Assembly (NCBI GenBank): GCA_964507445.1
Contig: CAZDQF010000012.1
Span: 65,989 to 129,988, forward strand
Length of the DNA stretch: 64,000 nt
Reading direction: 5' to 3'
Source: an uncultured Isosphaeraceae bacterium
Lineage (GTDB): Bacteria > Planctomycetota > GCA-002687715
The notes under the pieces were generated by a model that saw only the letters and a list, made by a program, of their open reading frames with translations, did not search any database and was not told the origin of the DNA. The position numbers and the translations under genes were made by a program. This document shows positions 2,938 through 34,129 of the stretch, piece by piece. Numbering within the stretch: the stretch's first letter is position 1; each line of letters starts with the position of its first letter.

Positions 2938-2983
2938 TCGTAGCACTCTACCAAGTGTTGAAAGGGTAAGGACTTCCGGGGGC

Positions 2984-6810: not shown

Positions 6811-6828
6811 TCGACCCTGTCCTCGCGC

Positions 6829-9789: not shown

Positions 9790-9867
9790 GTGGAGGCCCT
9801 TTCCTCGTCCAAACGCGCCCCGGTAGCATGACAGATGGTGGGCCGCGAGCGCAAGACAGCTATCGGA

Positions 9868-11085: not shown

Positions 11086-11095
11086 TCTGGTCTTC

Positions 11096-11947
11096 TCAAC
11101 TGAACACCACGGTCTTGTTGCCCCAGACGATGACCCTGTCGTCGAGGTGCCACCGGACGGCGCGGGCGAGGACGTTCCGTTCGATGTCGCGGCCGAGTGA
11201 CACCAGGTCTCCGGGCGCGTGGCGATGGGATACGCGGGCCACGTCCTGTTCGATGATGGGTCCTTCGTCCAGGGCGCTCGTCACGTAGTGAGCGGTGGCT
11301 CCGATGACCTTCACGCCTCGATCCCAGGCCTGATGGTACGGGCGGGCGCCGGCGAATGCGGGGAGGAAGGAGTGGTGGATGTTGATGATCCTGGACGGGA
11401 ACCGTTCCACGAATCCGGGGGAGAGGATCTGCATGTAGCGGGCCAGCACCACCAGGTCCACGCCGTCCAGCAATCCGAGCTGCTGTGTCTCCGCCGCTTC
11501 CTTGGTAGTGGGGGTCATCGGGACGTAATGGAACGGGACCCCGAAGGTCGAGACCGCTCCCTCGGCGTCCTCGTGATTGGAGATGACGCACGTGATGTCC
11601 GCGTTCAACTCGCCATTCCGCCAGCGCCACAGCAGCTCCAGCAGGGCGTGATCCATCTTCGAGACCATCAGCGCCATGCGCTTGCGTCTCGATGGATAGG
11701 AGATCCGCCAGTCCATCTCCAGGGGATGAGCGACCTGGGCTGAGAAGGCGGACTCGAACGCGGCGGCGGATGCTCCACGGTCCGGGAGGGTGAACTCCAG
11801 TCGCATGAAGAACGTGCCGTGGTCTGGTTCCGTGGTGTGCTGGTCCAGTCCGGTGATGTTGGCCCGTTGCTCCAGGAGGAAGCTGGTGCAGCGGGCGATG
11901 ATGCCCGGCTGATCCGGGCACGTGATGAGCATGCGGGCGGTGTTCAC
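11096..11947 (-). CDS. purU: Formyltetrahydrofolate deformylase
   Basis: N-terminal ACT domain (MLITCPDQPGIIARCTSFLLEQRANITGLDQH) followed by a formyltransferase domain (INIHHSFLPAFAGARPYHQAWDRGVKVIGATAHYV). Confidence 0.88.
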   Translation of the reverse strand: MNTARMLITCPDQPGIIARCTSFLLEQRANITGLDQHTTEPDHGTFFMRLEFTLPDRGASAAAFESAFSAQVAHPLEMDWRISYPSRRKRMALMVSKMDHALLELLWRWRNGELNADITCVISNHEDAEGAVSTFGVPFHYVPMTPTTKEAAETQQLGLLDGVDLVVLARYMQILSPGFVERFPSRIINIHHSFLPAFAGARPYHQAWDRGVKVIGATAHYVTSALDEGPIIEQDVARVSHRHAPGDLVSLGRDIERNVLARAVRWHLDDRVIVWGNKTVVFS

Positions 11948-15580: not shown

Positions 15581-15603
15581 GGTCAGAACGGTACACTGCG
15601 GCC

Positions 15604-17163: not shown

Positions 17164-20100
17164 CTATAGCCGGTCCGGGAACTTGCCCCAGGTCACGGAG
17201 TACCCGAGGGGCGCCAAGGGGTTGATGAACGCACCCTGCACGGTGATCTGGATTCCGAGTGGGGGGTTGGGAAGGGTGAAGGGTCCCAGGTCGAAGTGTC
17301 CGTTCGGGTCCATGGTGGCGCCGGAGGGCGGGGCGAAGGTGCCGATGCCGTCCACCAGCGGGATGATGCTCGGCGCCGGGTAGGGCAGCACGGAGAGGAC
17401 GAAGTCCCCGGTGGGGTTCGGCCACGGGTAGATGGGCGTCGGGTTGCTCACGTCCACGACGCAGAGGAAGGGCATGTTGGGCATGCCGTTCTCGAAGTGG
17501 GCGATGTAGGTCTCGCCGGGTAGCGGGCCGAGCGGATGCCGGATCCCGATGCCGAGGTTGCTCGCGGGGCCGCCCACAGAGTGAGCCTTCGGATTGGACG
17601 GCACCGTGTGGGCGTTCTCCACCGCGATGGCGACCCCGCCTCGCTGCTGCACTCCGGGGTGCGTGCCCGGGATCTGGCACTGCAATTCCGTCGAGCTGAT
17701 GAACGTGGTGGAGAGCGGGAACTCATCGGCATAGGCCACGGTGCCCGGGTGGAAATTGGCGCCGAAGATGGTCACCGGATGGGGCGGGCTGGCGGGGTTC
17801 ATGATCGGACCGCCTGCAGGCTGCAGAGACGAGATCACGGGGGCGAGGACCGGGAACGGCAAGGCGCCGGAGATGCCGCCGAAGCCCATGCCGGTCACGT
17901 CGATGTTCTCCACGTCGATGTTCGCGGTCCCGGGTTGTCCGATAAGCGCTGCGGACACCAACCCCTGGACCTGCGTGTTCGAGACGTAGGTGGTGGGGAT
18001 CGCCGTTCCGTTCCAGCGCACCATGGTGGCGCCGTCGAAGAACCCGGTTCCGTTGACGTTCATGGTGAACGTGACGTCGCCGGCGATGGCGGAGGTGGGC
18101 GCTGTGGACGTCAGCGTCGGCGCCGGAATGACGGTGTTGAAGGCGATGCTCGACACCCCGCTGCCGACGGTGGGCGCCGGATTCGTCACGATGACGGAGA
18201 ACGTTGACAGGGCGGTGATGGACGACGCGGGGACCGTGGCCGTCAGCGTGTTGGCGTTGACGAACGTGGTCGCCAGGTTCAGGCCGTCGAAGCTGATGAC
18301 CGCACCCTGGACGAAGTTCGTGCCGTCGACGGTGAGCAGGAACGCGGGTCCCCCGGCGAAGGTCGTGGCCGGCGTGGTGGAGGTCACGACCGGGTTGGGA
18401 TTGTTGATGGTGAAGGTGGCCGCGGCACTGGTGCCTCCTCCGGGAGCCGGGTTCTCCACGGTCACCGCTGCGTATCCCGCGGATGTGACGAGGCTGGCCG
18501 GGATACCGCAGGCAAGTTGGCTCGATGACACGTAGGTCGTCGGCTGCGGAGCGCCGTTCCACCGGACTACAGAATTCGTGGTGAATCCGGTTCCCTGCAC
18601 GGTGAGAGTGAAGGACGGGTCATTCACGACCGCCGACGGGGGATTGAGGGAGCCGATGGCTGGAACGGGGTTGGTGATGGTGAACGTCTGTCCGTTGGAC
18701 GTGCCGCCGCCGGGCGCCGGACTCTGCACCGTCACCGTAGCGACGCCGGGGCTCGCGATCAGCGCCGCGGGTACGGTCGCCGCAAGCGTCGACGAGTTCA
18801 TGAAGCTCGTGCTCAGAGGCGTGCCGTTCCAGTGGACGATGGAGCCGAGGGCGAAGCCTGATCCGTGGACGGTGAGGCCGAAGGACGGCCCGCCGGCCGG
18901 GGTGGAGCTCGGAGTCATCGCCGTCGTGGAAGGAGCCGGGTTCGGTACTTGTTCCACCAGCATGGTGAACCCGAAGTAGGTCGCTGCGGAGACCGGTCCG
19001 GTATCGGTGGTGCAGACGATGGCGTGGAGACCGGGCGACAAGCTGACGGTGGACGTGACCCCGTCAACGCCGCTGGCGATGGCCGAGCCCCGTGGCCTGA
19101 AGTCGGCGTTCGTCCCAGGGTCGAACAGGCGCCACTTCAAGGGCGCGGCGTTGGACATGGTGATGTTGTAGTTTCCTGCGACGGGCGCGTCGAACTGGAA
19201 CAACCGGATGACCTCGTAGGCGTTCCAGTTCTGAGGGAGGGATGGCGTACCCACGGTGAGCGGATGACCCGATCTCGACTTGATGCGCGCGCTGCCGGTG
19301 CCGCCGACGCGGCTGGCCACGCCGTGAAGCGGGCTGACCGTGCCGTTGTCCCCGTTAGCGACAACGAACTCCGACACGGCACCCGGGGATTGAGAGAAGG
19401 CGGAGCCCACCCCCAGGTCCCAGTCAGAAGTGGATTGCAGTCCCACCGCGACCCATCCCCCGGCCTGGGCCGTGAAGGTGAACGGACTGCAAGGCTCCGA
19501 GATGGTCCAGGCGCTGGACCCCTGGAGATGCGCCAACGCGGTCGTCCTGTAGTGCACGGCGCCGCTCCAGACTCGGGGTGAGAACGTCGCGCCGAAAGGA
19601 TAGGTTTTCCCGGCCCCCTCGAGGATCTGGAGGTTCGCGTCCGCCGCGAAGACCGCGCCGGGAGAGGTGCCGACGAGGTCGTTCATGGCCGCGCCATTGG
19701 TCACCGTGACGTAGAACCCCTGGGTAGAGCCCGCCGCCAACGAGACCATCAGGCCGATGGGCAAAGGCGTCGGGACGTTGCCGCCGTTGGACACGACGCC
19801 CGTCGCTGCGCCGGCCAGGGTCCATGCGCTTGGATCGTTTTCCTTACCGATGAACGTGCCCCCACCGGTCACCGTGTAAACCTCCAAGTCCCAGGTCCCC
19901 GGGTCCAGGTTGACGTCGAAGCCGCAGATGCTGACGTCGTTGATCGCCACCAGATCGAACATGTTGCCGGCCTGTCCGCTGTTGGCGGCGAAGGTGGTGC
20001 CCAGGCTCGTCGTCGGAGTCGGACCAACGACCGTAAAGGGTAAGGATGAAGAGACGCCGCCGCCGGGCCCGGTCGTCTCCACGTCCACGCTGACGACTCC

Positions 20101-23100
20101 AGCGCTTGCAAGGAGGGACGACGTCGCGTAGCCGCGGAGTTCATTCGCAGAGATGAATTGCGTCGTCAACGCCGTTCCGTTCCACCGGACCGTGGAGTCA
20201 CCGCTGATGAACTGGGACCCCATGACGGTCAACCAGAATCCCGGAGTCCCGACGGATACGCTGGTGGTGCCCAGCGACGTTAGCGTGGGAGTCGGGTTCT
20301 CGACCGTGAAGGTGGTGAAGGCGCTGCCACCTCCGGGGGCCGGGTTCTCGACACCGATGGATGTGATGTTGGCGAAGTTGAACCAACCCTGGGAGTTGGT
20401 GAGCGTCACGGTGACCGTGTTGGCGTCGATGAACGTGGTCGGAAGCGCGTTGCCGCCGCCGTTGCCGAACCTGACCACCGAAGTGGAGTTGAAGTTCGAT
20501 CCGTTGACCGTGACCAGGAGCGGACCGCTGCCGAGGAGCGCCGTATCCGGAGTCACCGAGGAAATCGTGGGCGCGGGATTGGTGATGTCGAAGGTCAAGG
20601 GGGCGGAGATGCCGCCTCCAGGTCCCGAGGTCTCCACGTCCACCGCTGCGGTTCCGGGCAAGGCGATGAGCGGCGAGGGGACCGTGGCGCGAAGCTGAGT
20701 GGCGGAGACGAACGCAGTGAGGAGAGGCGTCCCGTTCCAGCGCACGGTGGAGGACCCGTTCACGAAAGCCGAGCCGTTGACGTTGAGCAGGAACGTCGGA
20801 CCTTCGGTGAGGACGGAGGGCGGGTCCAGAGAGGTGGGCGCGGGCGCCGGGTTCTCCACAGTGAAGGTGGTCGATCCGAAGCCGCCGCCGGGTGACGGGT
20901 TGGTGACGCCGACGATCACCGTGCCCGCGGCCGTGAGCGCCCCGCAGGGCACGGTCGCGGCGACCGTGTTGGCATCGACGAAGGTCGTCGCGAGGCTGAT
21001 GCCGTCGAAGCTGATCACCGAACTTGGGACGAACTCGGAACCGTTGACGGTGATGGGGAACGCTCCGCCCCCGTTCTCGTACCAGGCGACCTTGTGGTCA
21101 GGGTCGGTAGAGAAACCTCCGAATGCCAGCGACGCGGAGAGGACGTCCATGTCACAGTCGCCGTCAAGGTCCGCGGCGAAGACGCATTCGGGGGACTCAA
21201 CGTCCATGGAGATCGCGGAGGGCGGTCCGAAGCTGCCGCCGCCCAGATTCTCATACCACGTAATTTGCTCCGGAGAACTCCCGCCGGACGCGCCGGACGC
21301 GGAGAGCACGTCGGTGTCGCCGTCGCCGTCGAGGTCTGCGGCAAACACGCTCGTGGCGGAATCAGCGCTGGCGCTGACCACCTGCTGCGGTCCGAAGCTG
21401 CCGCCGCCCATGTTCTCGTACCACGCGATCTTGTCGTCCGTAATTGAAGCCGAGAGCACGTCACGGTCGCCATCACCATCGAGGTCCGTGGCGAACACGC
21501 TCGTCCCTCCCCACACGCCAGTGGGGGTGCCTGCTGGCCCGCTCAGCCATTGCTCGGCGCCGAAGCTGCCGCCGCCGGTGTTCTCGTACCACGCGATCCT
21601 GTCCTGAGACGCGTGGAGCACGTCGGTGTCCCCGTCGCCGTCAACGTCGATGGCGAAGACACTGCGGGCGCTGCCCGCACTCGTGGTGATGACTTGCTGG
21701 GCACCGAAGGTGCCGCCGCCGGTGTTCTCGTACCAGGCGATCTTGTTGTCGAGGGGGGAAGCGGAGAGCACGTCGTGGTCGCCGTCCCCGTCCACGTCGG
21801 CGGCGTGCACGCACCAGGCGCCTGCCGCGAGGGTCGTGATGACCTGCTGGGGTCCGAACGTGCCGCCGCCGAGGTTCTCGTACCAGGCGATCTTGTCGTC
21901 GTCAAAGGAGGCGGAGAGGACGTCCGCGTCATTGTCGCCGTCGAGATCGATGGCGAAGACGCTGGTGCCTCGCTGGAGGGTGGAGGGTATGGAGTACGTC
22001 GTGACCGCTTGCATGGTGCCGAAGTTGCCGTCCCCCAGGTTCTCGTACCAACCGATCGTGTGGAGAAACGCTGCGAGGACGTCGAGGTCGCCGTCGCCGT
22101 CCAGGTCTTCGGCGTAGACGCTTCGCGGTTCACGTTGATCCAGACCATTGGTGTACGGGCTGAGCACCTGCTGCGGTCCGAAGCTGCCAAGGCCGCCGAT
22201 GACCGCCGAGGACGGCGACGTGGACGTCACCGTCGGTACCGGGTTGACGGTGTTGAACGCGACGGAGGAGTATCCGCTGCCGATGGTGGGTGCGGGGTTC
22301 ACGACGCCGACGGTATAAGTCCCAATCCCGGCGATGGACGAGGCCGGGACGGTCGCCGTGAGGGTGCCCGCGTTCACGAACGTGGTCGCCAGGTTCAGGC
22401 CGTCGAAGCTGATCACGGACGTCGGGACGAAGTTCACGCCGTTCACCGTCAGGAGGAACGCCGGACCGCCGGCGGCGGCGGTGCTCGGAGTGGTGGAGAC
22501 GACCAGCGGGTCCAGGTTGTTCACGGTGAAGGTGTTCGCCGTGCTGACGCCGCCGCCGGGAGCGGGGTTCTCCACGGTCACCGCTGCGTACCCTGCCGAC
22601 GCGACGAAGCTCGCGGGGATGGCGCACGTCAGCTCGCTCGATGTCACGTAGGTCGTCGGCTGCGGAGCGCCGTCCCATTGGATGACGGAGCTCGACGAGA
22701 ATCCGGTGCCGATCACGGCGAGGGTGAACGCCCCGCCTCCCACCAGGGTCGATTGGGGAGTCAAGCCCGTGATGGTCGGCACGGGGTGCCCGATGGTGAA
22801 AGTCTGGGTCGTCGAGATGCCACCTCCGGGGGTCGGGTTCTGGACGCTGACGCTGGCGGTGCCGAACGTCGCCACCAGAGACGCGGGGACGGCTGCCGTG
22901 AGCTGGGAGGCGCTGACGAACGTGGTGCTCAGCGGCGCTCCGTTCCACTGGATGGTGGCGTTGGATGCGAAGCCGGACCCGTTGGCCGTCAGGGTGAAGC
23001 CGCCTGCGCCGGCGGTCGTTGCCGCGGGCGAGATCGACGTCAGCGCGGGCACCGGGTTCTGGGGCTGCGGCTCAACCAGCATGGAGAAGGTGAACGGCGT

Positions 23101-26100
23101 TCCCACCAGGCCGCTGTCGGTGGTGCAGACGATGGCATGCCAGCCTGGTGACAGGTTGACGGAGGAGGTCACCCCGTCGACGCCGTTGGCGATGGCGGCG
23201 TCCCGTGGCCTGAAGTCCGAGGTGGTCCCCGGGTCGAACAGACGCCACTTCAGGGGCGCCGCGTCGGACATGGTGATGTCGTACGTGCCCGCTGTCGTCA
23301 CACTGAATTCGAACGTCCTGATGACGCGGTTGGTGGGCCACGAGGCGATGGTGTAGGGCGTCCCCATGGCGAGCGTCACGTTGTAGGAACGCATGATGCT
23401 GGCGCCGTCCGTGCCGCTGACCCGGCTGGCGATGCCGTTGGCCTGATTGACGGGGCCGTTGCGGCCGTTGGCGATGACGAAGTCGGTGATGGCTCCCGAG
23501 GATCGGGAATGGACGCCGCCGATGCCGATGTCCCAGTCGGAGGTGGAGGCGCAGCCGACGGCGTTCCAGCGATTGAAGTCCAGAGTGAAGCTGAACGGGC
23601 TGCAAGGGTTGACGACGGATACCGGTACGGCGGTTGGAAGGGTGGTGTTCTGGAGCGCCGTCGGGCTGTAATGGACGGTGCCGTTCCAGACCCGGGGCGA
23701 GTACGTGCTTCCGAAGGGGTAGGTCTTTCCGGCTCCCTCCAGGATCTGGAGATTGGAATCCGCGGCATAGACCGCGCCGGCGGTCGTGCCGTTGGTGTAC
23801 TTGATGCCCGAGCCGTTGGTGACGGTGACGTAGAAGCCCTGGGTCGTGCCCGCCGTCATCGGCGTCATCAGGCTGATGGGGAGCGGCGTCGGGGCATTCA
23901 GGCCGTTGGAGACCACGCCGGCGGCCGACCCGATCAGAGTCCAGGCCGAGGAGTTGGTCTCGTTGCCGACGAAGGTGCCGCCTCCGGTGACCCCGTAGAC
24001 CTCGAGGTCCCACGTCCCCACGTCGAGGTTGACGTCGAAGCCGCAGATGCTGACGTCGTTGATGGCCACCAGATCGAACATGTTGCCGGCCTGGCCGTTG
24101 TTGCTCGCGAAGGTCGTGGTCAGTCCCGTTGCCTGGGAGAAGTTGTTGATGATGAAGGGCAAGGACGCCGAGGTCCCGCCCCCGGGGAGCGGGCTCTCCA
24201 CCAACACCGCCGCCGTGCCCGTCGTGGTCAGGAAGTTGTCCCCCACCAGAGCCTTGAGGGTGTTGCCGTCCTCGAAGGTGGTGGTCAGGGTGGTGCCGTC
24301 GAACTTGACCGTGGAGTCGGCGACGAAGCCGGACCCGCTGACCGTGATCTGCAACGGATCGAAGGTGTTCTCGTACCAGGTGATCGCGGAAGTGCTGAGG
24401 GACAGGGAGAGGATGTCGAGGTCGCCGTCGCCGTTGAGGTCGCTGGCGAACACGTTGTTGGCGTAGTCCGCCGTGGTGGAGACGACGTTCTCGGGCCCGA
24501 AAGAGCCGCCGAGGTTCTCGTACCAGGCGATCTTGTCGTCGAACCGGGACGCCGACAGCACGTCGCGGTCGCCGTCGCCGTCCAGATCGGCGGCGAACAC
24601 GCTCACGGCGCCGTCGGCGCTGCTGCTGATCACCTGCTGGGTCCCGAAAGACCCGCCGAGGTTTTCGTACCAGGCGATCTTGTCGTCGCCTTGAGACGCG
24701 GAGAGGACATCCACGTCGCCGTCGCCGTCGAGATCGGCGGCGAAGACGCTACGGGCGCCCTGCGCGTTGGTGGTGATCGTCTGCGGGGTACCGAATCCCC
24801 AGGGGAAGTTCTCGTACCAGGTGATGCGGTTGTCGCCCTGGGACGCCGACAGCACGTCGGCGTCACCGTCGCCGTCAAGGTCCGCGGTGAAGACGTCCAT
24901 GGCGCCCATCGCGTTGCTGGTGATCAAGTGCTGGGGCCCGAAGGAGCCGCCGATGTTCTCGTACCAGGCGATCTTGTTGTCATCGCGGGACGCGGAGAGG
25001 ACGTCGAGGTCGCCATCCCCATCGAGGTCCGCGGCGTGAACGGCGTAGGCGTAGGCGAGGTTGCTGGTGATCACCTGCGGTGCGCCGAAGGACCCGCCGC
25101 CGAGGTTCTCGTACCAGGCGATCTGGTTGCTGGGCAGGGAGACCGAGAGGACGTCGAGGTCGCCGTCGTTGTCGAGGTCGCCCGTGTGCACGTCAACGAA
25201 ATGACTGTAGGTACCAGCGTGGACCACGACGTTTTGCGGGGCTCCGAAGGATCCGCCGAGGTTCTCGCACCACCGGACGGCGTTGACCGTGGTGCCGAGG
25301 ATGTCGTTGTCGCCGTCACCGTCGAGGTCGGCGGCGTGGACGTCCCATGCGAAGCCAAAGCCCGTCGCGATCACCTGCTCCGGGCCGATTCCACCGGCCG
25401 GAGTGACGACGGGGCTGCTGTCCGGGGTGACCGAGGTCAGCGTCGGGACCGGGTTCACGAAGGTGACCGTGAACGGCGTCGAGGCCGACGTCCCGCCGCC
25501 TGGCGACGGGTTGAAGACCTCCACGTCGTGGGTCCCTGCCGTGGCGACGTAGCTCGCCGGGATGGTGCATCGCAAGAGGCCGGGCAGCACCAGGGTGGTG
25601 GGCTGGCTCAGGCCATTCCATCGGATCACCGAGCTGGTGTTGAAGCCGGAGCCGAGGAGGTCGAGGCTGAAGGACCCGCTGCCGGCGGTGGTGGAGGACG
25701 GGAACATGCCGGTGACCGAGGGCGTCGGGTGACCGATGAGTAGGGTCTGGCTCGGGGAGAATCCGCCCCCCGGGGCCGGGTTCTCGATGCTGATGGCAGC
25801 GGTTCCGACGGTGGCCGTGAGGGATGAGGGTACGGATGCCGTGAGCTGGGACGTGCTGACGAAGGTGGTGGCCAGAGGGGTGTTGAGAGTCGTGCCGCTC
25901 CAGTGGACCATCGCGCCCGAGACGAAGTTGGAGCCGTTGGCGGTCAGGGTCAGGGTGCCGCCGCCGACGGTCGCTGACGTGGGGGCGATCGACGTCAAGG
26001 TGGGTAACGGGTTCGATCCAGGGATGCTGTCCACGCGGACCTGGAACGACAGGCTGCTGGCGGGCGCACCGAAGGGGTGGGTGACGGCGATGGCGTGCCA

Positions 26101-29004
26101 TCCGGCGTCGAGGGTGACGGTGTGGGTCGTGCCGTTCGCAACTCCGTTGATCACGAAGTCGCTGCTGGGTCGCCACTGGGAGTCGTTCCCCGGTGCATGG
26201 AGCTTCCAGTACAGGGCGCTGCTTCCCGTGAGCGTGATGTCATAGCTGCCAGCGGTGGTGGCGTTGAAGTCGAACATCCGGATCACGAAAGAAGCCGGCC
26301 AGCTGGAGGAGAGGGTCGTGCCGACGGGGAGACCATCGATGTCCGCCCGCTGCAAGCGCGCCGCCGCGGCGCCCGCGTTCAGGACGGCGACTCCGTTCTG
26401 CGGGTTGATGGCTCCGAGGTGACCGTTGGTGATGACGTAGTCCGTCAGGCCGAAGGCGTAGCCGGACTGGGCCGAGCCGACGCCGATGTTCCAGTCCGAG
26501 GTCGAGGCCACGCCCACGGCGTTCCAACGATTCGCGGCGGTGACCGTCGTGAAGGGGTGGCAGGGACCGCCGATGTTGCTGACGGAGATGCCGCTCAGGG
26601 GGACATTGCTGGCCACCGGGCAGACGTTGCTCATGACGTAGGTCGTGTCGGGTGACGGTCCGTTGTTCCGGTAGAGAAGGAGCGCGTGGTATCCCGTGCT
26701 CGACACCGTCACGGTCCAGGTCGTGCCGCTCGCCGTCCCGCCGCCGATGTAGTCGTTCTTGCGGATCCAGTTGGCGTCGGACTGGGGTGCGTAGAGGCGC
26801 CAGGAGATGGAGGAGTCTCCCGTCACGGTGACGGCGTAGGTGCCGGTGGCGGCGAGGTTGATCTCTCGAAGCTCCAGGATCTCGCCGGGGCTGAACGTGT
26901 CGACCCCGTTGAATCCGGTCGCGCCGAGCGCCGTGGCGCCCTCAGCCTCCACCGTCGCGTCGGCGGACCCGGCGGTGCCGATGACCAGCCCGGTGGTGGG
27001 GCTGATGGCCCCGTGGTGTCCGTTGGCCAGAACGAAGTCCGCGCCCGTGGTCGTCGACGTGGCGCTTCCCATCACCAGGTTCCAGTTGGAGGACGACGAG
27101 ACGCCCACCACGTTCCACCGACCGGCCACCGGGTTGACACCGATCTCCCGGCAAGGCGTGGCGTTGGTGATCACGGCCGGGCTCTCGTTGGCGATCAGGT
27201 TGATGGAAGACCCGTTGCACACGGTGACCCCGAAAGTGGACGGGGTCACGGCCGCCGTGCCGTTGTCCTTGTAGACGACGATGACGTGCCAGCCCGCGTC
27301 GAAGAGCAGGTGGTTGCTGGCGCCGTCGCCCACGGTTCCGCTGGCGATCAGCGTGGTCGAGTTCCGTGCCCGCCAGCTCTCATCCGAACCGGGCTTGTAC
27401 AGGCGCCAGCTCAGGTCCGGGCTGCCGGAGACGGCGATCTCGTAGTAGCCGCCCAGGGACTCGAACTCGAACATCTGCATGACGTCCGTGGACCCCCAGG
27501 TGTTGGTGTCCATGGTCCCCACGGTGAGGGTCTGGGCCTCGAGGAGATCGGCGCGAGCGGTGTCGGTGCCGACGTACTGATCGAACTCCCCGGACGTCGG
27601 GGCGACGGTGCCCAGGTGCCCGTTGGCGATGATGAAGTCGCAGCTCCCGCCGCTCAGGGTCGAGCTGGCGTCTTCATGGATGAGGTCCCAGTCGCTGGCG
27701 GACGTGATGCCGAAACCGACCCAGCTGTTGGCTGCCGGTGTGCCGTTGAACACCTGGAAGTCGCAGGTCACCGGGTCTGAGTTTCCCGTGGTGGAGCTGG
27801 CGAGGTACTGGTTCGAGCAGCCGACGGTGTTGGAGATGGCGATCTGCAATCCGGGTGTCAGGATGCTCTGGGCGTGGTTGTTCAAATAGCCTGCCAATGC
27901 ACACCCACCGTGCGTGTGTATCCCGATCACCTCCCCGGTCGCCTCATTGATCATGGGAGCCCCAGAGGCGCCGCCAGCGGAATCAACAAGGTGCTCAATG
28001 TAATCGTTGACGTAAGCGGTAAGGGGTCCCGTCGCCGTCTGCTGAGCGCACCAGTACGCAGGGTCATTCGCATCAACTCCAAAGCCGGTGAGGCGGAGTA
28101 CTGGGTTGTTTGGCGGAGGCAGGATTAGAGGCAAGGTCGTCGCGAGGGTGAAGTGCGCGCCCTGGTTCCCGACCGCCGTCTGCCCGGTGGAATTCGGGTG
28201 GAGGCGCCCCACGAGCCAATCGGCACCAATGCCGTTGTTGAGGGACCAGATGGAAGACTGGTCCACCGGGTACTGATCGGCCACGGGAGGATGCTGAAAC
28301 TGAGCCGGTGGACTATTACCGGGGTTGGACACTGGAAGGGACAACGGAACGTTGAACTCCGCGATGACCACCGCCCCGGGCGGTACCTGGTTGGGATTCA
28401 AAGGGCCGGGTGCATAGCAATGCCCGGCGCTGACGATGGTGTTGGTGTCGCTGATGAGGAATCCGGTGCAAGCTGCAGGTCCGGTACCCAAGCTGGATAC
28501 GAGGCGGCAGACGCGCGGGTCACTGCTGGGGACTCGATCGTCGATACCCGCGCAAATCGAAGCTAATGGGTCATTGCCGTGATGCTGCCCGACCAACCCG
28601 AGTGCACCCACATAGAGATCACGGATGACCACCTGCCCGACGGATCCCGCAGCCAGCTCCACGGAGAGCTCCAGACGGTCGCCGTTGAACCACGCGGTGT
28701 GGTTGCGCCAGAGCTTGAGGTTGGAGAGGGTGAGGCGCTGCTGCTCGCCGTCGCGGGGATTGGTGACGACGATGGCGTCGTCCGGGTGTTGCAGGTCCGC
28801 CGTGTCGAAGAGGAGCTGTAGGGAGGGCGCCCCGGGTACGGTCACCGTAGTCTTCCACACCGTCTTGGACCCGGCCCCGCTGTTGGAAAGGATGCCGGAG
28901 GCGAGGGGATAGGGGATCATGGTCCCCATAGGCGCCGGTGATTGAGAGGCGGCCGAGGTCACAAGGCAGACAAGGACGGCAGCAAGGCGTGACTGGCGCA
29001 TCAT
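17164..29004 (-). CDS. Giant (3946 aa) secreted multidomain protein: N-terminal trypsin-like S1 serine protease, pre-peptidase-like beta-sandwich repeats, about 20 IPT/TIG domains, two FG-GAP/VCBS beta-propeller arrays, conserved C-terminal domain
   Basis: Signal peptide MMRQSRLAAVLVCLVTSAASQ with RBS GGAG 7 nt upstream. Protease motifs SAGHCY and GGASGAP. Repeated W(R/K)LY/F...PG.D..WR modules. IPT/TIG repeats (P.LTS..P.SA..GG..FTLT.NGS.F..GS.V.WNG..L.TTFVS...L.A.VP). FG-GAP blades (VFAADLDGDGD.DVLSAS..D.KIAWYENLGGGSFG). The frame stays open for 11.8 kb. Confidence 0.85.
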   Translation of the reverse strand: MMRQSRLAAVLVCLVTSAASQSPAPMGTMIPYPLASGILSNSGAGSKTVWKTTVTVPGAPSLQLLFDTADLQHPDDAIVVTNPRDGEQQRLTLSNLKLWRNHTAWFNGDRLELSVELAAGSVGQVVIRDLYVGALGLVGQHHGNDPLASICAGIDDRVPSSDPRVCRLVSSLGTGPAACTGFLISDTNTIVSAGHCYAPGPLNPNQVPPGAVVIAEFNVPLSLPVSNPGNSPPAQFQHPPVADQYPVDQSSIWSLNNGIGADWLVGRLHPNSTGQTAVGNQGAHFTLATTLPLILPPPNNPVLRLTGFGVDANDPAYWCAQQTATGPLTAYVNDYIEHLVDSAGGASGAPMINEATGEVIGIHTHGGCALAGYLNNHAQSILTPGLQIAISNTVGCSNQYLASSTTGNSDPVTCDFQVFNGTPAANSWVGFGITSASDWDLIHEDASSTLSGGSCDFIIANGHLGTVAPTSGEFDQYVGTDTARADLLEAQTLTVGTMDTNTWGSTDVMQMFEFESLGGYYEIAVSGSPDLSWRLYKPGSDESWRARNSTTLIASGTVGDGASNHLLFDAGWHVIVVYKDNGTAAVTPSTFGVTVCNGSSINLIANESPAVITNATPCREIGVNPVAGRWNVVGVSSSSNWNLVMGSATSTTTGADFVLANGHHGAISPTTGLVIGTAGSADATVEAEGATALGATGFNGVDTFSPGEILELREINLAATGTYAVTVTGDSSISWRLYAPQSDANWIRKNDYIGGGTASGTTWTVTVSSTGYHALLLYRNNGPSPDTTYVMSNVCPVASNVPLSGISVSNIGGPCHPFTTVTAANRWNAVGVASTSDWNIGVGSAQSGYAFGLTDYVITNGHLGAINPQNGVAVLNAGAAAARLQRADIDGLPVGTTLSSSWPASFVIRMFDFNATTAGSYDITLTGSSALYWKLHAPGNDSQWRPSSDFVINGVANGTTHTVTLDAGWHAIAVTHPFGAPASSLSFQVRVDSIPGSNPLPTLTSIAPTSATVGGGTLTLTANGSNFVSGAMVHWSGTTLNTPLATTFVSTSQLTASVPSSLTATVGTAAISIENPAPGGGFSPSQTLLIGHPTPSVTGMFPSSTTAGSGSFSLDLLGSGFNTSSVIRWNGLSQPTTLVLPGLLRCTIPASYVATAGTHDVEVFNPSPGGGTSASTPFTVTFVNPVPTLTSVTPDSSPVVTPAGGIGPEQVIATGFGFAWDVHAADLDGDGDNDILGTTVNAVRWCENLGGSFGAPQNVVVHAGTYSHFVDVHTGDLDNDGDLDVLSVSLPSNQIAWYENLGGGSFGAPQVITSNLAYAYAVHAADLDGDGDLDVLSASRDDNKIAWYENIGGSFGPQHLITSNAMGAMDVFTADLDGDGDADVLSASQGDNRITWYENFPWGFGTPQTITTNAQGARSVFAADLDGDGDVDVLSASQGDDKIAWYENLGGSFGTQQVISSSADGAVSVFAADLDGDGDRDVLSASRFDDKIAWYENLGGSFGPENVVSTTADYANNVFASDLNGDGDLDILSLSLSTSAITWYENTFDPLQITVSGSGFVADSTVKFDGTTLTTTFEDGNTLKALVGDNFLTTTGTAAVLVESPLPGGGTSASLPFIINNFSQATGLTTTFASNNGQAGNMFDLVAINDVSICGFDVNLDVGTWDLEVYGVTGGGTFVGNETNSSAWTLIGSAAGVVSNGLNAPTPLPISLMTPMTAGTTQGFYVTVTNGSGIKYTNGTTAGAVYAADSNLQILEGAGKTYPFGSTYSPRVWNGTVHYSPTALQNTTLPTAVPVSVVNPCSPFSFTLDFNRWNAVGCASTSDWDIGIGGVHSRSSGAITDFVIANGRNGPVNQANGIASRVSGTDGASIMRSYNVTLAMGTPYTIASWPTNRVIRTFEFSVTTAGTYDITMSDAAPLKWRLFDPGTTSDFRPRDAAIANGVDGVTSSVNLSPGWHAIVCTTDSGLVGTPFTFSMLVEPQPQNPVPALTSISPAATTAGAGGFTLTANGSGFASNATIQWNGAPLSTTFVSASQLTAAVPASLVATFGTASVSVQNPTPGGGISTTQTFTIGHPVPTITGLTPQSTLVGGGAFTLAVIGTGFSSSSVIQWDGAPQPTTYVTSSELTCAIPASFVASAGYAAVTVENPAPGGGVSTANTFTVNNLDPLVVSTTPSTAAAGGPAFLLTVNGVNFVPTSVISFDGLNLATTFVNAGTLTATVPASSIAGIGTYTVGVVNPAPTIGSGYSSVAFNTVNPVPTVTSTSPSSAVIGGLGSFGPQQVLSPYTNGLDQREPRSVYAEDLDGDGDLDVLAAFLHTIGWYENLGDGNFGTMQAVTTYSIPSTLQRGTSVFAIDLDGDNDADVLSASFDDDKIAWYENLGGGTFGPQQVITTLAAGAWCVHAADVDGDGDHDVLSASPLDNKIAWYENTGGGTFGAQQVITTSAGSARSVFAIDVDGDGDTDVLHASQDRIAWYENTGGGSFGAEQWLSGPAGTPTGVWGGTSVFATDLDGDGDRDVLSASITDDKIAWYENMGGGSFGPQQVVSASADSATSVFAADLDGDGDTDVLSASGASGGSSPEQITWYENLGGGSFGPPSAISMDVESPECVFAADLDGDCDMDVLSASLAFGGFSTDPDHKVAWYENGGGAFPITVNGSEFVPSSVISFDGISLATTFVDANTVAATVPCGALTAAGTVIVGVTNPSPGGGFGSTTFTVENPAPAPTSLDPPSVLTEGPTFLLNVNGSAFVNGSSTVRWNGTPLLTAFVSATQLRATVPSPLIALPGTAAVDVETSGPGGGISAPLTFDITNPAPTISSVTPDTALLGSGPLLVTVNGSNFNSTSVVRFGNGGGNALPTTFIDANTVTVTLTNSQGWFNFANITSIGVENPAPGGGSAFTTFTVENPTPTLTSLGTTSVSVGTPGFWLTVMGSQFISGDSTVRWNGTALTTQFISANELRGYATSSLLASAGVVSVDVETTGPGGGVSSSLPFTVVGPTPTTSLGTTFAANSGQAGNMFDLVAINDVSICGFDVNLDPGTWDLEVYTVTGGGTFIGKENDPSAWTLAGAATGVVSNGGNVPTPLPIGLMVSLAAGSTQGFYVTVTNGAAMNDLVGTSPGAVFAADANLQILEGAGKTYPFGATFSPRVWSGAVHYRTTALAHLQGSSAWTISEPCSPFTFTAQAGGWVAVGLQSTSDWDLGVGSAFSQSPGAVSEFVVANGDNGTVSPLHGVASRVGGTGSARIKSRSGHPLTVGTPSLPQNWNAYEVIRLFQFDAPVAGNYNITMSNAAPLKWRLFDPGTNADFRPRGSAIASGVDGVTSTVSLSPGLHAIVCTTDTGPVSAATYFGFTMLVEQVPNPAPSTTAMTPSSTPAGGPSFGLTVHGSGFALGSIVHWNGTPLSTSFMNSSTLAATVPAALIASPGVATVTVQSPAPGGGTSNGQTFTITNPVPAIGSLNPPSAVVNDPSFTLTVQGTGFTTNSVVRWNGAPQPTTYVSSSQLACGIPASLVTSAGYAAVTVENPAPGGGTSAAATFTINNPNPVVTSTTPATTFAGGPAFLLTVDGTNFVQGAVISFDGLNLATTFVNANTLTATVPASSITALSTFSVIVTNPAPTVGSGVSSIAFNTVIPAPTLTSTAPTSAIAGDVTFTMNVNGTGFFDGATMVRWNGTAIPTTYVSNTQVQGLVSAALIGQPGTANIDVENIDVTGMGFGGISGALPFPVLAPVISSLQPAGGPIMNPASPPHPVTIFGANFHPGTVAYADEFPLSTTFISSTELQCQIPGTHPGVQQRGGVAIAVENAHTVPSNPKAHSVGGPASNLGIGIRHPLGPLPGETYIAHFENGMPNMPFLCVVDVSNPTPIYPWPNPTGDFVLSVLPYPAPSIIPLVDGIGTFAPPSGATMDPNGHFDLGPFTLPNPPLGIQITVQGAFINPLAPLGYSVTWGKFPDRL

Positions 29005-29392: not shown

Positions 29393-32300
29393 TTAGAGCT
29401 GGTCAGGGTAGCGGGGCCATTGGAGGGTGAAGCCCACCGGTGAGCTGGGGTTGATGTAGGCACCCTGCACCGTGATGCTCCAGCCGAGGGCCGGGTTGGG
29501 GAGGGTGAGACCCGGGAGGGTGAACTCACCGGCGGCGTCGTAGACGATGCCGGGGATCGGAGGTCCGAAGACACCGATGCCGTCGATCACCACGAACCAG
29601 TCCCCCGGGACCGCCGGCTGGGAGCCGCGGACCGACAGCACGAAGTCTGCCGCGGGGCTCGGCCACGGATAGATGGGGGTCGGGTTGGTGAGGTCCGCCA
29701 GCAGCAGCAGCGGGAAGCCCGGCAGGCCGCTCTCGCAGCGGGCCCCGTAGGACTCGCCCGGCAGCGGCGCCAGCGGGTTGCGGGTGACGGTGCCGGCGTT
29801 GCTGCCGAGACCGCCGACCACGCACGCCACCGCGTTGGACGGCACCGTGTGGGCGTTCTCCACCGCGATGGCGAGGCCGCCGCGGCGCAGGGCGCCGAGC
29901 ACCGTCGGGCCCACCTGGCAGCTCAGGGTGGAGCTGTTCAGGTAGGTGGTGGGCAGGGCGTAGCCGTCGGCGTAGGCGACGGTGCCCGGATGGAAGTTGG
30001 TCCCCGTGATGGTGATGGTCTGAGCCGGTGATGCCGCGGTCAGGATGGGGATCGAGGACGGCGTGATGTTGATGATCGAAGGCGCAAGCACCGGGAACGA
30101 CAGGGCGCCGGAGGCGCCGCCGCCAGGACCGGCGGTCTCCACGTCCACGTTGGCGGTGCCCGGCGTCCCGATGAGGGCCGCGGACACCGTGGCCTGCAGC
30201 TGGTTCGAGGAGACGAAGCTCGTGGGCAACGGGCCGCCGTTCCAACGCACCTGGGAGTCACCGTTGATGAAGTCGGAGCCGTTCACGTTCATGGTGAACG
30301 TGGCGTCGCCGGCGACGGCGAACGTGGGCGCCACCGAAACGATGGACGGTGTCGGGTTCTCAACGGTGAAGTTGGTGGAGCCCAGACCGCCGCCGGGCGC
30401 CGGGTTCTCCACGCTGACCAGCACCGATCCGGCGGTGGACAGGGATGCGCCGGGCACCGTGGCGGTGACCGCGTTGGCGCTCACCAGGGTGGTGGCCAGA
30501 CCCAGCCCGTTGAATCGGATCACCGAGCTGCTGTTGAAGTTGGCGCCGTTCACCGTGATGGCCAGGGGGCCGCTGCCCACCACCGCTGAGGCGGGGCTGA
30601 CGGAGGCCACCGTGGGCACCGGGTTGTTGACCGTGAAGGTGCTGATGGGAGTGATGCCGCCACCGGGTGACGGGTTGAACACCTGCACGTTCCGGGTCCC
30701 GGCGTTGGTGATGAAGCCGGCCGGGATGGTGCAGCGCACCAGCGTCGACGACACCAGGGTGGTGGACTGGCTCAGACCGTTCCACCGGATCACTGAACTG
30801 CCGTTGAAGTTGGAGCCGCTGACGTTGAGGGTGAAGGCTCCGCTCCCTGCGGTGGCCGACGACGGGCTCAGGGAGCTCAGGGTCGGCGCCGGGTTGTTGA
30901 TGGTGAAGGTCTGGCTGCCGGAGATGCCGCCGCCGGGGGCGGGGGTCTCCACGTCCACGGACGCGGTGCCGGCGCTGGCGATGAGCGCGGAGGACACCGA
31001 GGCCGTGAGCTGGCCGGAGTTCACGTAGGTGGTCGTCAGGTTGCTGCCGTTCCAGCGGATGCTGGAGCCGGAGATGAAGTTCGATCCGTTCACGGTCAGG
31101 GTGAAGGAGGAACCACCAGCGAAGGCCGAGCTCGGCGACAGGGACGAGGTGGACGGCGCCGGGTTGGGCGTCGGCTCCACGGTCACGGAGAAGGTCGGTT
31201 GTGACGACGGGTCCGCGGTGGCGTGGTAGACGCTGATGGCGTGCCACCCGGTGGTGGAGAAGGTCCGGGTCAGCGTGGTGCCGCCCGCCGCGCCCAAGGC
31301 CACGTAGTCGTTGTCCGATCGCCAACTGGCGTCCGTGCCCGGTTCATGGAGTCGCCACGACAGGTTCGGGGCGTTGTCCAGGGTGATGTCGTAGCTGCCC
31401 GGGCTCGGGATGTCGAACTCGAACATGCGGATCACCCGGTTGGCCGGCCATCCGGCGATGGTGTACGGCGTCCCCACGTTCAGGGTCACCGTGTAGGAGC
31501 GCATGAGGCGAGCGCTGTCCGCTCCGGAGAAGCGAGAGGAGACGCCGTTGCTGGGGGTGACGGTGCCGTTATGTCCGTTGGCGATGACGAAGTCGGTGAC
31601 GCCGCCACCGGACCTCGAGTAGCCCGTGCCCACACCGATGTCCCAGTCGGAGGCCGAGGCGACACCGACCGCGTTCCACCTGCCGGACTCCGGCGAGAAC
31701 GTGAAGGGGGCGCAGGGACCCGCAGCCGTGGCCACACCGAACCCGGACAGGGTGGTGCTGGTGGAGACGGAACAGATGTTGGACATCACCGTGGTGGTGT
31801 CGGTGGAGGGCCCGTTGTTGCGATACAGCAGCAGGGCGTGGTACCCGGTGCTGGAAACCGTCACGTTGACGGTGCCCCCGCCGCCGTTGCCGGAGGCGAT
31901 GGAACTCGCTTCCGGGACCCAGTTGGCGTCCGATTGAGGCGCGTAGAAGCGCCACGAGATCGAGGAATCCCCGACCACCGTGATGGCGTAGGTGCCCGTG
32001 GAGGTGAGGTTCACCTCGCGCAGCTCCAGGATCTCCCCTGCGGCGAACGCGTCCACCGAGTTGGACCCGGTTGCGCTGAGGGACAGGGCGTCCTGGTGCT
32101 CCATGGTCCCGTCTGAGGAGCCGGAGAACCGGTTCACCTGACCCCATATGGGAGAGATGGTGCCGAGGTGCCCGTTGGCGAGGGCGAAGTCGGCGCCGCC
32201 CGTGTAGGAGGTCGCGCTGCCCAGCACCAGGTCCCAGTCGGAGGGAGAGGAGATGCCGACCACGTTCCATCGTCCCGCCACCGCCGTTATCCGGAAGTCC

Positions 32301-34129
32301 TGGCACGGGTCGGTGATGGTCGTCGGAACGTTGTCCGTGAGCAGGATTGACCCCGTCGCCGAGCACACCGTGACCGCGAGGCTGGTGGGGCTGACCGCCG
32401 CGACGCCGTCGTCCTTGTAGACCACGATGACGTGCCATCCGGTGTTCAGGGTCGCGCCCTGGTATGTGGAAAGGCCGACGGTCCCGCTGGCCTCCAGGGT
32501 CGTGGAGGTGCGGCTGCGCCATCCGGCGTTCGACCCCGGTGCGTACAGCCGCCAGTTGAGGTCGCTGCTGCCGCTGACGGTGATGTCGAAGCTGCCCGCG
32601 GCCGTGACCTCAAACTCGAACATCTGCATCACGTCGGTGGACCCCCAGGAGCTGGTCTCCGTCTCGCCGACCGCGAAGGTCTGGGCTTCGAGGAGGTCTG
32701 CGTAGGCGTTGGAGCCGCCGGAGAAGCGGTTCAGCTCGCCGGAGGTGGGCGCGACGGTTCCGAGGCGCCCGTTGGCGATGATGAAGTCGCAACTGCCGCC
32801 ACCGAGGACCGACGACGCATCTTCGTGGATCAGGTCCCAATCGCTGGCCGACGTGATACCGAAGCCGACCCAGCTGTTGGCCGCAGGTGTGCCGTTGAAC
32901 ACCTGGAAATCGCAGGTCACCGGGTCGGCGGCCCCGCTCTGCGAGCTGGCCAGGAACTGGGTCGAGCACCCGACGGTCTGTGCGATGGCCGTTTGCAGCG
33001 CTGGCCGGAGAATGCTGGTCCCGCTGTTGGAGCTGGTGGAGCTGGTGCCGCAGCCGCCGTTGGTGTGGATGCCGATGGCCAGGCCCGTCGCGGTGTCGAT
33101 GATGGGGCTCCCGGAGTTGCCGCCCTCGGTATCCACCCGGTGGCGGATCTGGTCGCCTACGTACCCGAAGTGCGTGCCGGTGTCCGTCTGTTGATCGTAG
33201 GCGCGGGTAGCGTTGTTGCTGTCATCCCCGTGTCCGGTGACGCGGAGGTTGGGCACCACGAACGGCGGGATGTACGCCGGCAAGGTCGTGGCCAGGCTAA
33301 AGAATGAACCCTGGTTGCCGAAAGCCGTGGTGCCTGTGGAGTTGGGGTGCAGGCGCGCGACGGCCCAGTCGTCGCCGCCTCCCGGCAGGCCCAGATTTTC
33401 GAACTGGATGGTGGATTGATCCACCGGGTACTGATCTGCGACGGGTGGGTGCTGGGCGCAGCCTGCGGCGTTGGATGCCGGGGTGTTGAATTCGGCGATG
33501 ACAAACCAGTCCGGCAGCGGGTCGGCGCAGTGGCCGGCGCCGAGGATGGTGTTGGTCGAGCTGATCAACCAACCGGTGCAGGAGCCGCACGACGCGGCCG
33601 TCATGACGAGTCGGCAGACGCGTGCGTCATTGCTCAGGGTCCGCTCGTCGCCGCTGCCGCAGATGGTGTTGGACGTGCCCAGGATGGGCTGGATCCCCGC
33701 GTAGACGGTGCGGATGACGATCTGGCCGGTGGAGCCTGGCGCCAGCTCGATGGCCACGTCCACACGGTCTCCGTTGAACCACGCGGTGTGGTTCCGCCAC
33801 TGCTTCAGGCGCAGGTGATCGAGCCGCTGGGTCTCCCCGTCTCGCGGGTTGGTCAGGATGACGGCGTCGTCAGGACCGATCTCGACGGTGTCGAAGAGCA
33901 ACTGGAGCGAATGGGCCCCGGTGACCTGGATGGGTGCGCTCCACGCTCGCCAGGGGATGTCCCTGCCGTTGCTCACCAAGCCCGAAGAGGCGGGGTAGTT
34001 GACCGCGGTGGCGATAGGTGCAGAGGGTTGGGCCACGACCGAAGGCATGGTCGCGGCGACGAGGAGGAGCGTCAGCGCTCCGAGTGCGGTGACTCGGCCG
34101 ACAGGCCGGACACTGATGGAGAGGGACAT
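29393..34129 (-). CDS. Large (about 1578 aa) secreted trypsin-like S1 protease with pre-peptidase-like repeats, about 6 IPT/TIG domains and a conserved C-terminal domain (paralog of the 17164-29004 protein)
   Basis: Internal Met MSLSISVRPVGRVTALGALTLLLVAATMPSVVAQ is a signal peptide, preceded by RBS AGGAAG. The ATG at 34129 was checked. The protease region aligns with gene 1 (SLQLLFDT...NPRDGE.QRL...WRNHTAWFNGDR; AGHC; GNSGSPI). The C-terminal 170 aa is shared with gene 1. Confidence 0.85.
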   Translation of the reverse strand: MSLSISVRPVGRVTALGALTLLLVAATMPSVVAQPSAPIATAVNYPASSGLVSNGRDIPWRAWSAPIQVTGAHSLQLLFDTVEIGPDDAVILTNPRDGETQRLDHLRLKQWRNHTAWFNGDRVDVAIELAPGSTGQIVIRTVYAGIQPILGTSNTICGSGDERTLSNDARVCRLVMTAASCGSCTGWLISSTNTILGAGHCADPLPDWFVIAEFNTPASNAAGCAQHPPVADQYPVDQSTIQFENLGLPGGGDDWAVARLHPNSTGTTAFGNQGSFFSLATTLPAYIPPFVVPNLRVTGHGDDSNNATRAYDQQTDTGTHFGYVGDQIRHRVDTEGGNSGSPIIDTATGLAIGIHTNGGCGTSSTSSNSGTSILRPALQTAIAQTVGCSTQFLASSQSGAADPVTCDFQVFNGTPAANSWVGFGITSASDWDLIHEDASSVLGGGSCDFIIANGRLGTVAPTSGELNRFSGGSNAYADLLEAQTFAVGETETSSWGSTDVMQMFEFEVTAAGSFDITVSGSSDLNWRLYAPGSNAGWRSRTSTTLEASGTVGLSTYQGATLNTGWHVIVVYKDDGVAAVSPTSLAVTVCSATGSILLTDNVPTTITDPCQDFRITAVAGRWNVVGISSPSDWDLVLGSATSYTGGADFALANGHLGTISPIWGQVNRFSGSSDGTMEHQDALSLSATGSNSVDAFAAGEILELREVNLTSTGTYAITVVGDSSISWRFYAPQSDANWVPEASSIASGNGGGGTVNVTVSSTGYHALLLYRNNGPSTDTTTVMSNICSVSTSTTLSGFGVATAAGPCAPFTFSPESGRWNAVGVASASDWDIGVGTGYSRSGGGVTDFVIANGHNGTVTPSNGVSSRFSGADSARLMRSYTVTLNVGTPYTIAGWPANRVIRMFEFDIPSPGSYDITLDNAPNLSWRLHEPGTDASWRSDNDYVALGAAGGTTLTRTFSTTGWHAISVYHATADPSSQPTFSVTVEPTPNPAPSTSSLSPSSAFAGGSSFTLTVNGSNFISGSSIRWNGSNLTTTYVNSGQLTASVSSALIASAGTASVDVETPAPGGGISGSQTFTINNPAPTLSSLSPSSATAGSGAFTLNVSGSNFNGSSVIRWNGLSQSTTLVSSTLVRCTIPAGFITNAGTRNVQVFNPSPGGGITPISTFTVNNPVPTVASVSPASAVVGSGPLAITVNGANFNSSSVIRFNGLGLATTLVSANAVTATVPGASLSTAGSVLVSVENPAPGGGLGSTNFTVENPTPSIVSVAPTFAVAGDATFTMNVNGSDFINGDSQVRWNGGPLPTSFVSSNQLQATVSAALIGTPGTANVDVETAGPGGGASGALSFPVLAPSIINITPSSIPILTAASPAQTITITGTNFHPGTVAYADGYALPTTYLNSSTLSCQVGPTVLGALRRGGLAIAVENAHTVPSNAVACVVGGLGSNAGTVTRNPLAPLPGESYGARCESGLPGFPLLLLADLTNPTPIYPWPSPAADFVLSVRGSQPAVPGDWFVVIDGIGVFGPPIPGIVYDAAGEFTLPGLTLPNPALGWSITVQGAYINPSSPVGFTLQWPRYPDQL

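Follow-up and report, generated by a model that had tools for sequence, protein, structure and literature searches.

An old intragenic tandem duplication of a multi-module unit in a giant planctomycete gene for a predicted secreted trypsin-like protease

The stretch of DNA analysed here (the window; 64,000 nucleotides (nt), all positions below being those of the window) comes from an uncultured marine planctomycete of the Isosphaeraceae (contig CAZDQF010000012.1) and had a guanine plus cytosine (GC) content of 65–71% throughout. Its minus strand carries a giant gene with a GC content of ~67%, together with a shorter tandem paralogue upstream. The giant gene product comprised a signal peptide, a pro-region, an S1/trypsin-like protease, five PPC-like modules, 15 IPT/TIG modules, two FG-GAP propellers, two jelly-roll modules and a C-terminal domain, and is predicted from these parts to be a secreted serine protease with a long arm of immunoglobulin (Ig)-like spacers and putative binding modules.

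When the whole giant protein was searched with Pfam, only FG-GAP_3 and TIG were recognized: FG-GAP_3/VCBS (PF13517) matched with 338.9 bits (cut-off 26.9) in 12 stretches and IPT/TIG (PF01833) with 214.1 bits (cut-off 20.9) in 11 stretches. The N-terminal 420 amino acids (aa) on their own matched Trypsin_2 (PF13365; 31.9 bits, cut-off 27.6) and Trypsin (PF00089; 30.6 bits, cut-off 20.6). Both catalytic motifs, SAGHC (His) and GGASGAP (Ser), were retained, aligning with SAAHC and GDSGGP of beta-trypsin, and by eye the triad Asp was placed in DWLVGRL. The modules were mapped using hidden Markov models (HMMs) built from the giant protein's own modules, which were searched against the giant protein and its upstream neighbour; these counted the 15 IPT modules and gave the following arrangement.

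17164..29004, minus strand: giant gene, a single uninterrupted open reading frame (ORF) of 3,946 codons, 3,946 aa.
aa 1–20, minus strand: N-terminal Sec signal peptide.
aa ~130–400 (27805..28617), minus strand: S1 protease domain after the pro-region, from Pfam and the retained His/Ser motifs.
aa 414–593, 616–791 and 813–989 (26038..27765), minus strand: PPC-like modules X1–X3, 178 aa each; presumed ancestral scaffold, common to the neighbouring paralogue.
aa 1001–1178, minus strand: IPT g1–g2 (own-module HMMs).
aa ~1184–2250 (22255..25455), minus strand: repeat unit A, consisting of a split IPT with propeller, jelly-roll A, X4 and IPT g4–g6.
aa 1200–1552 (24349..25407), minus strand: FG-GAP propeller A, seven blades, with seven DxDxDxDxD loops and seven W(Y/C)EN motifs.
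To aa 1617, minus strand: partial IPT after propeller A (own-module HMMs).
aa 1620–1785 (23650..24147), minus strand: jelly-roll A, a putative PHR/carbohydrate-binding module (CBM)-like beta-sandwich with no Pfam/NCBIfam model.
aa 1799–1975 (23080..23610), minus strand: PPC-like module X4 (own-module HMMs).
aa 1986–2250, minus strand: IPT g4–g6 (own-module HMMs).
aa ~2254–3622 (18139..22245), minus strand: repeat unit B, consisting of a split IPT with propeller, three extra IPT, jelly-roll B, X5 and IPT g11–g13.
aa 2269–2663 (21016..22200), minus strand: FG-GAP propeller B, seven blades, with seven DxDxDxDxD loops and seven W(Y/C)EN motifs.
To aa 2714, minus strand: partial IPT after propeller B (own-module HMMs).
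aa 2721–2990 (20035..20844), minus strand: IPT g8–g10, in unit B only (own-module HMMs).
aa 2995–3158 (19531..20022), minus strand: jelly-roll B (own-module HMMs).
aa 3170–3348 (18961..19497), minus strand: PPC-like module X5 (own-module HMMs).
aa 3358–3622, minus strand: IPT g11–g13 (own-module HMMs).
17167..18120, minus strand: presumed ancestral C-terminal scaffold of IPT g14–g15 (aa 3629–3803) and a 143-aa C-terminal domain (aa 3804–3946), common to the neighbour, the gene on metagenome contig L039 and protein P0124.

Start-site calls for the giant gene differed between databases. The second ATG was used in ENA/NCBI, giving 3,945 aa, and M29 in JGI, giving 3,918 aa with loss of the signal peptide (28918–29004). 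A GGAG sequence precedes the first ATG by 4 nt and the second by 7 nt.

The giant protein was compared with itself at every offset, and 40-aa windows with at least 50% identity were counted. The highest-ranking offsets were 1372, 1373 and 1371 aa (253, 165 and 109 windows, respectively), corresponding to 4,113–4,119 nt, and five DNA families with this same spacing of 4,113–4,119 nt and local identities of 73–78% were returned by a repeat finder. Alignment of unit A with unit B gave a single high-scoring segment pair (HSP) with blastn (22205–24129 with 18089–20010; 1,947 columns, 71.3% identity, E = 0) and likewise with blastp (aa 1553–2268 with aa 2925–3640; 719 columns, 61.9% identity, E = 0). 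The off-diagonal line at about 4.1 kb that the original prediction of an internal duplication had called for was thus present, both as the self-diagonal and as the blastn HSP.

The two units were adjacent, head-to-tail and in the same reading frame, and collinearity between them spanned five to six modules. Module by module, the copies were generally each other's closest relatives. The cores of jelly-rolls A and B were 75% identical, compared with at most 68% identity to any of the ~120 external homologues compared, and formed a two-member clade in a neighbour-joining tree of 125 domains, which sets the age of the duplication relative to these homologues. X4 and X5 (59% identity) were reciprocal best matches, as were the IPT pairs g5/g12 (67%) and g6/g13 (74%). 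The exception was the pair g4/g11 (52%), in which g4 was nearer to g1 (62%) and to n1 (55%), and g11 was nearer to n1 (57%). The giant gene therefore contains an old segmental duplication, tandem and intragenic, of a unit made up of several modules, as had been claimed, and the claim is borne out by the collinear modules, the sister jelly-rolls and the uniform synonymous divergence described below.

The outline of the repeat was redrawn in several respects. The 4.1-kb offset (1,371–1,373 aa) was limited to the block consisting of the last IPT, jelly-roll, PPC-like module and three IPT. The propellers were separated by ~1,077–1,090 aa, i.e. ~3.2 kb and not 4.1 kb, because unit B has three extra IPT (g8–g10) between its propeller and its jelly-roll, so that the jelly-roll is preceded by one IPT in unit A and by four in unit B. 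The collinear block of the original prediction was thus recovered, but its view of two copies of the same unit is not supported as stated, given this difference in make-up. Similarly, it had placed four to five IPT at the end of each unit; the three IPT after the PPC-like module do belong to the repeat, whereas the final two belong to the presumed ancestral C-terminal scaffold. The duplicated DNA extends over ~18085–25455 and is wider than the interval first proposed (19900–25400), although the FG-GAP arrays (24349–25407 and 21016–22200) lay close to where they had been placed. The amino acid identity of 70–80% given earlier was too high: it was 62% over the collinear block (68–71% at the nt level), with only the jelly-roll core (75%) falling in that range.

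Units A and B were then compared per module from codon-aligned sequences, giving amino acid and nt identities, synonymous divergence (dS) and the ratio of non-synonymous to synonymous divergence (dN/dS).

FG-GAP propeller, A versus B: aa identity 61%, nt identity 68%, dS 0.82, dN/dS 0.40.
Jelly-roll, A versus B: aa identity 69%, nt identity 72%, dS 0.83, dN/dS 0.28.
PPC-like module, X4 versus X5: aa identity 58%, nt identity 67%, dS 0.83, dN/dS 0.41.
Three IPT, A versus B: aa identity 62%, nt identity 69%, dS 0.72, dN/dS 0.44.

The similar dS values (0.72–0.83) over four module classes fit a single event, and this event is old. The low dN/dS values (0.28–0.44) indicate that both copies have been maintained by purifying selection, and the DxDxDxDxD loops were intact in 14 of the 14 blades.

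The original prediction had added that the repeat architecture predisposes the gene to recombination and to variation in length between strains. Under this explanation the repeat would still be active, with ongoing recombination or gene conversion changing the length of a surface protein from strain to strain. The units do share two exact words of 38 nt, a length close to the minimum commonly given for RecA-dependent recombination; the 147-nt blade repeats within each propeller were also up to 75–77% identical. These words, however, were the longest common to the units (in-register identical runs of 38, 38, 29, 29 and 26 nt), overall nt identity was 68–71% and long near-identical stretches were lacking. 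A 99-nt segment at 24005–24103 reached 92% identity, and 24 of the 29 codons for identical residues in it were also identical at the nt level, compared with a background of 60% (uncorrected p = 0.008). As a candidate gene-conversion tract this segment was rejected, since the significance was lost after correction for ~14 independent windows, and it coincides with the motif that is best conserved across the whole jelly-roll family. Recombination between repeats that have diverged is suppressed by mismatch repair, and a MutS protein is predicted to be encoded in the window (its nearest named relatives were in Planctomycetota metagenome-assembled genomes (MAGs)).

The 3,945-aa product is on record in six NCBI/ENA contigs and the version with the later start in 10 JGI contigs (16 in total). 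In the four contigs that were fetched (L040–L043; one from ENA and three from JGI, with four sample accessions) the 11.8-kb gene showed 0 nt differences from the window and no variant in length, this sampling being of one population-level genotype, and the 90%-identity cluster of the protein contained only start-codon variants and one 75-aa fragment. The corollary of recombination and length variation is therefore unsupported, and we consider an active repeat improbable.

An origin of the two units by independent acquisition of similar FG-GAP/jelly-roll cassettes from outside, in place of duplication within the gene, is very unlikely. The jelly-roll is certainly mobile, being found alone in more than 150 small secreted proteins from marine Planctomycetota and other phyla, with at most 68% identity to copy A, and the number of IPT differs between the units. 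The similarity between the units, however, takes in the flanking IPT as well as the PPC-like module and a further three IPT, i.e. modules of the scaffold type that are not found in the external jelly-roll proteins. In addition, jelly-rolls A and B were sisters with no closer homologue to either among the ~120 external domains, both propellers were flanked by a strand-A-like segment and a partial IPT, and dS was uniform. Almost no credence can be given to the view that the gene really has one unit and the second was produced by mis-assembly, through a chimeric join or an expanded repeat, because, although the window is metagenome-assembled and repeats are a known source of assembly error, the copies differ at ~29–32% of nt, far beyond what confuses an assembler, the ORF is open across all junctions, and the identical gene was present in four contigs from four sample accessions, with 16 contigs on record.

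The context of the intragenic duplication was provided by the tandem paralogue upstream and by a related locus in metagenomes.

29393..34129 (ORF to 34372), minus strand: tandem paralogue, upstream neighbour of the giant gene; 1,578 aa from M82, the likely start being at 34129.

The neighbour consists of a signal peptide, protease, X1–X3, five IPT and the same C-terminal domain as the giant protein, without FG-GAP and without jelly-roll. It was 55% identical to the giant protein over giant aa 17–1218, and its C-terminal half aligned with giant aa 3160–3946 at 51%. The module identities show that the giant protein is a scaffold of the neighbour type into which the two units have been placed, after IPT 2 and before the final X–IPT(1–5)–C-terminus. 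X4 and X5 were 44 and 40% identical to X3, respectively, and 53 and 47% identical to the X3 of the neighbour; as they were closer to each other (59%) than to either X3, an earlier X–IPT–IPT duplication is implied.

The locus of a related organism was represented by L039 (positions 1–8377) and L038 (metagenome contigs Ga0310342_100005894, Ga0310345_10013815). L039 carries a short form of 1,524 aa with X1–X3 and four IPT, and its gene order was AMP-binding and patatin (both matching the window at 38.1–40.5 kb), the short-form protease and then directly a PMT glycosyltransferase, which matched the window at 15005–15538 with 62% identity. The giant gene, the beta-helix gene (15553–17088) and the FadB/thiolase pair of the window were all absent from this syntenic position. 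The presence of only the short form at this locus indicates that the giant form is a lineage-specific expansion or, alternatively, that it was lost in the L039 lineage. The beta-helix/NosD-like gene (plus strand; Pfam Beta_helix, 129 bits) is convergent with the giant gene and lies directly downstream of it, and the two may have arrived together.

Other relatives were sought in several ways, the gene-length comparison in close relatives being that with the neighbour (1,578 aa) and the short forms of L038 and L039. A metagenome scan with the PPC-like alignment gave two loci only, both with short forms. Among 185,579 species-representative genomes, a 460-aa query of IPT, jelly-roll and PPC-like module found 37 loci, all of which matched the jelly-roll part only, so that the jelly-roll/PPC-like junction was present in none. 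A word-indexed search with the protease, X1 and X2 returned only distant relatives (at most 41% identity, 448–1,112 aa). In an exhaustive HMMER search of 1.84 billion representatives, with all of unit A as the query, proteins rich in FG-GAP and IPT swamped the output; the best stretch did not lie over the jelly-roll in any of the matches listed, and the top match (P0264, 4,790 aa) was an IPT-only array.

In both units the propeller appeared to interrupt an IPT module (24349–25455 and 21016–22245, minus strand). Each propeller was preceded by a short segment resembling IPT strand A (NPVPT(L/V)TS...), and the IPT that followed began at model position 19–20, the first ~18 positions being missing. 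When the preceding segment and the partial IPT were joined, coverage of the IPT model was 1–84 instead of 19/20–84, with a gain of 4–8 bits, which suggests a domain-in-domain arrangement with the propeller nested in an IPT loop.

Taken together, an old head-to-tail intragenic duplication of ~3.2–4.1 kb (a block of ~1,100–1,370 aa), in a giant gene for a Sec-secreted modular trypsin-like protease with a binding/spacer arm, very probably accounts for the locus, with the following history. The ancestral gene would have been the short form, with protease, three PPC-like modules, four to five IPT and the C-terminal domain, as kept next door and in L039. After tandem duplication of this gene, one copy would have gained a cassette consisting of a propeller, apparently nested in the A–B loop of an IPT, and a PHR/CBM-like jelly-roll. 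The block of propeller-in-IPT, jelly-roll, PPC-like module and three IPT would then have been duplicated in tandem, the likely mechanism being unequal recombination or slippage between similar flanking IPT/linker sequences (NPVPT(L/V)TS...). Later, three IPT would have been gained by unit B or lost by unit A. The outcome would be a longer, bivalent substrate- or surface-binding arm, and such a bivalent arm on a tethered protease is the likely function.

Several points weigh against this history or blur its order. With a GC content at third codon positions (GC3) of 0.87, synonymous sites are near saturation, and dS across all duplication comparisons was 0.76–1.25, so that dS does not show where the unit duplication falls with respect to either the gene duplication or the earlier X3–IPT duplication. 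The identities were also mosaic. In the protease and X1 the closest pair was the giant protein and the neighbour, and in X2, X3, the IPT and the C-terminus it was the neighbour and the L039 protein; a simple order of events may have been obscured by unequal rates or by gene conversion between these tandem genes, the giant gene and its neighbour. The homologue, genome and metagenome searches turned up no orthologue carrying one unit or three, and the duplication is consequently not datable on a species tree. Furthermore, the score gain behind the nested propeller was small, and the binding function is read from folds only.

A stronger reading of the duplication is that the block is a selectable binding cassette, formed by a nested propeller and two unmodelled families (the PHR-like jelly-roll of more than 150 secreted proteins, mostly from marine Planctomycetota, and the extended PPC-like module), that it gave the protease a new bivalent targeting arm on marine particles, and that its doubling was adaptive in this lineage. 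This is put forward only tentatively and seems to us rather doubtful. The duplication itself is real and its limits are well defined, yet it is an ordinary case of a known process, the block-wise growth to be expected of giant modular proteins. It follows the textbook pattern by which giant bacterial surface proteins evolve module by module, and matters little in itself; the locus nevertheless offers a clean worked example of gene growth, in which a short paralogue of the ancestral type stands beside a form 2.5 times longer and the syntenic locus of a relative has the short form only. For assembly and strain work, the repeat has diverged enough that collapse should not occur.

Of modest use, along with the possible nesting of the propeller and the locus as an example, are the modules themselves: three conserved extracellular modules (the jelly-roll, the 178-aa PPC-like module and the 143-aa C-terminal domain) lie outside Pfam/NCBIfam, are common in uncultured marine Planctomycetota and could become family models. 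The jelly-roll gave no Pfam or NCBIfam match. Database homologues (n = 155 at E ≤ 1e-3) were mostly secreted hypothetical proteins of ~200–570 aa from marine Planctomycetota MAGs, some of which carried PEP-CTERM, type IX secretion system (T9SS)-sorting or PKD domains, and genome matches reached Aestuariibacter, Bacteroidota, Nitrosomonas and Nitrospirales. In the homologues (P0001–P0120) the module commonly sits directly after the signal peptide. Its fold appears to be PHR/CBM-like, its consensus was LTTTFASNNGQxGNMFD...YVT.T...Y.NG...PRVWNG, and it could form the basis of a new family model.

The PPC-like modules gave no Pfam match at E ≤ 5 (two X modules searched) and no NCBIfam match, and had the PPC beta-sandwich fold despite the lack of a sequence match to PF04151. 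The 143-aa C-terminal domain (17167–17595, minus strand), which ends in ...GIQITVQGAFINPLAPLGYSVTWGKFPDRL, likewise gave no Pfam/NCBIfam match; it is common to the neighbour, the L039 gene and P0124 (741 aa, without a protease domain), and may serve in sorting or anchoring.

The giant gene resembles several known systems in part, and no domain-level description of it was found in the sources searched. All 29 of the 29 planctomycetal genomes surveyed by Kohn et al. (2016) carry genes of more than 5 kb, with up to 19 genes of more than 10 kb in one genome (PMC5177795), and giant genes code in more than 90% of cases for surface proteins or polyketide synthases/non-ribosomal peptide synthetases (PKS/NRPS) according to Reva & Tummler (2008), as cited in that paper (PMC5177795). 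The gene described here is like other planctomycete giant genes in exceeding 10 kb, in encoding a secreted repetitive multi-domain product and in having no close orthologues; it differs in beginning with a catalytic S1 protease and in that a short adjacent paralogue allows its growth to be traced. The clostridial collagenases ColG/ColH combine an M9 peptidase with PKD and one or two PPC/collagen-binding domains (PDB 1nqd, 5iku, 3jqw), whereas the catalytic domain here is S1 and not M9. Furthermore, the module here, likened to PPC by predicted fold, is ~80 residues longer and below every Pfam threshold, and its five copies are combined with propellers and jelly-rolls.

The propellers resemble the integrin-alpha-like FG-GAP/VCBS family (PF13517) in that there are two seven-blade sets, each blade with a predicted calcium-binding-type DxDxDxDxD loop, but they differ in lying apparently inside an IPT and in having been duplicated along with unrelated modules. 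The jelly-roll shares 5–12% sequence identity with the PHR domain (MYCBP2/BTBD2; PDB 3gbw, 3no8) and with CBM6/32/35, and differs from these in being bacterial and extracellular, often right after a signal peptide, with no Pfam/NCBIfam match. Giant repeat adhesins of the LapA, SiiE and MpIBP type have many near-identical repeats, the number of which varies between strains in some families. The giant protein shares with these adhesins a long Ig-like extender, which would present putative binding modules away from the cell. Unlike them it has only two units, which are complex and 62% identical, and no variant in length was seen; it also carries a Sec signal peptide at its N-terminus.

Two antisense ORFs had been offered originally as a sign of the repeat.

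19910..20131, plus strand: antisense ORF over jelly-roll B, mirroring the sense-strand repeat; not a gene.
24029..24466, plus strand: antisense ORF over jelly-roll A, mirroring the sense-strand repeat; not a gene.

Both ORFs exist and are near-identical at their beginning (LTSKPQMLTSL(I/M)ATRSNMLPA), but they carry no information beyond that of the sense-strand repeat. They were rejected as genes, having TTG starts, lying fully inside a coding region of the opposite strand, being among dozens of their kind in a gene of 67% GC and owing their similarity to the sense repeat. Antisense and out-of-frame ORFs, reaching 744 aa (e.g. 23509–25743, plus strand), were numerous throughout the giant gene, which is typical of coding DNA of 67% GC, in which stop codons are rare, and is not evidence of overlapping genes.

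Elsewhere in the window, four ORFs of 422–986 aa (6829–9789, 52203–54983 and 61182–62774 on the minus strand and 9835–11103 on the plus strand) gave no Pfam match at E ≤ 1e-3, and some of them may be on the wrong strand. At 45084–49919 (minus strand) a DUF255/thioredoxin-domain protein (691 aa) adjoins a 911-aa M14 zinc carboxypeptidase, a further gene of the secreted-peptidase type in the region.

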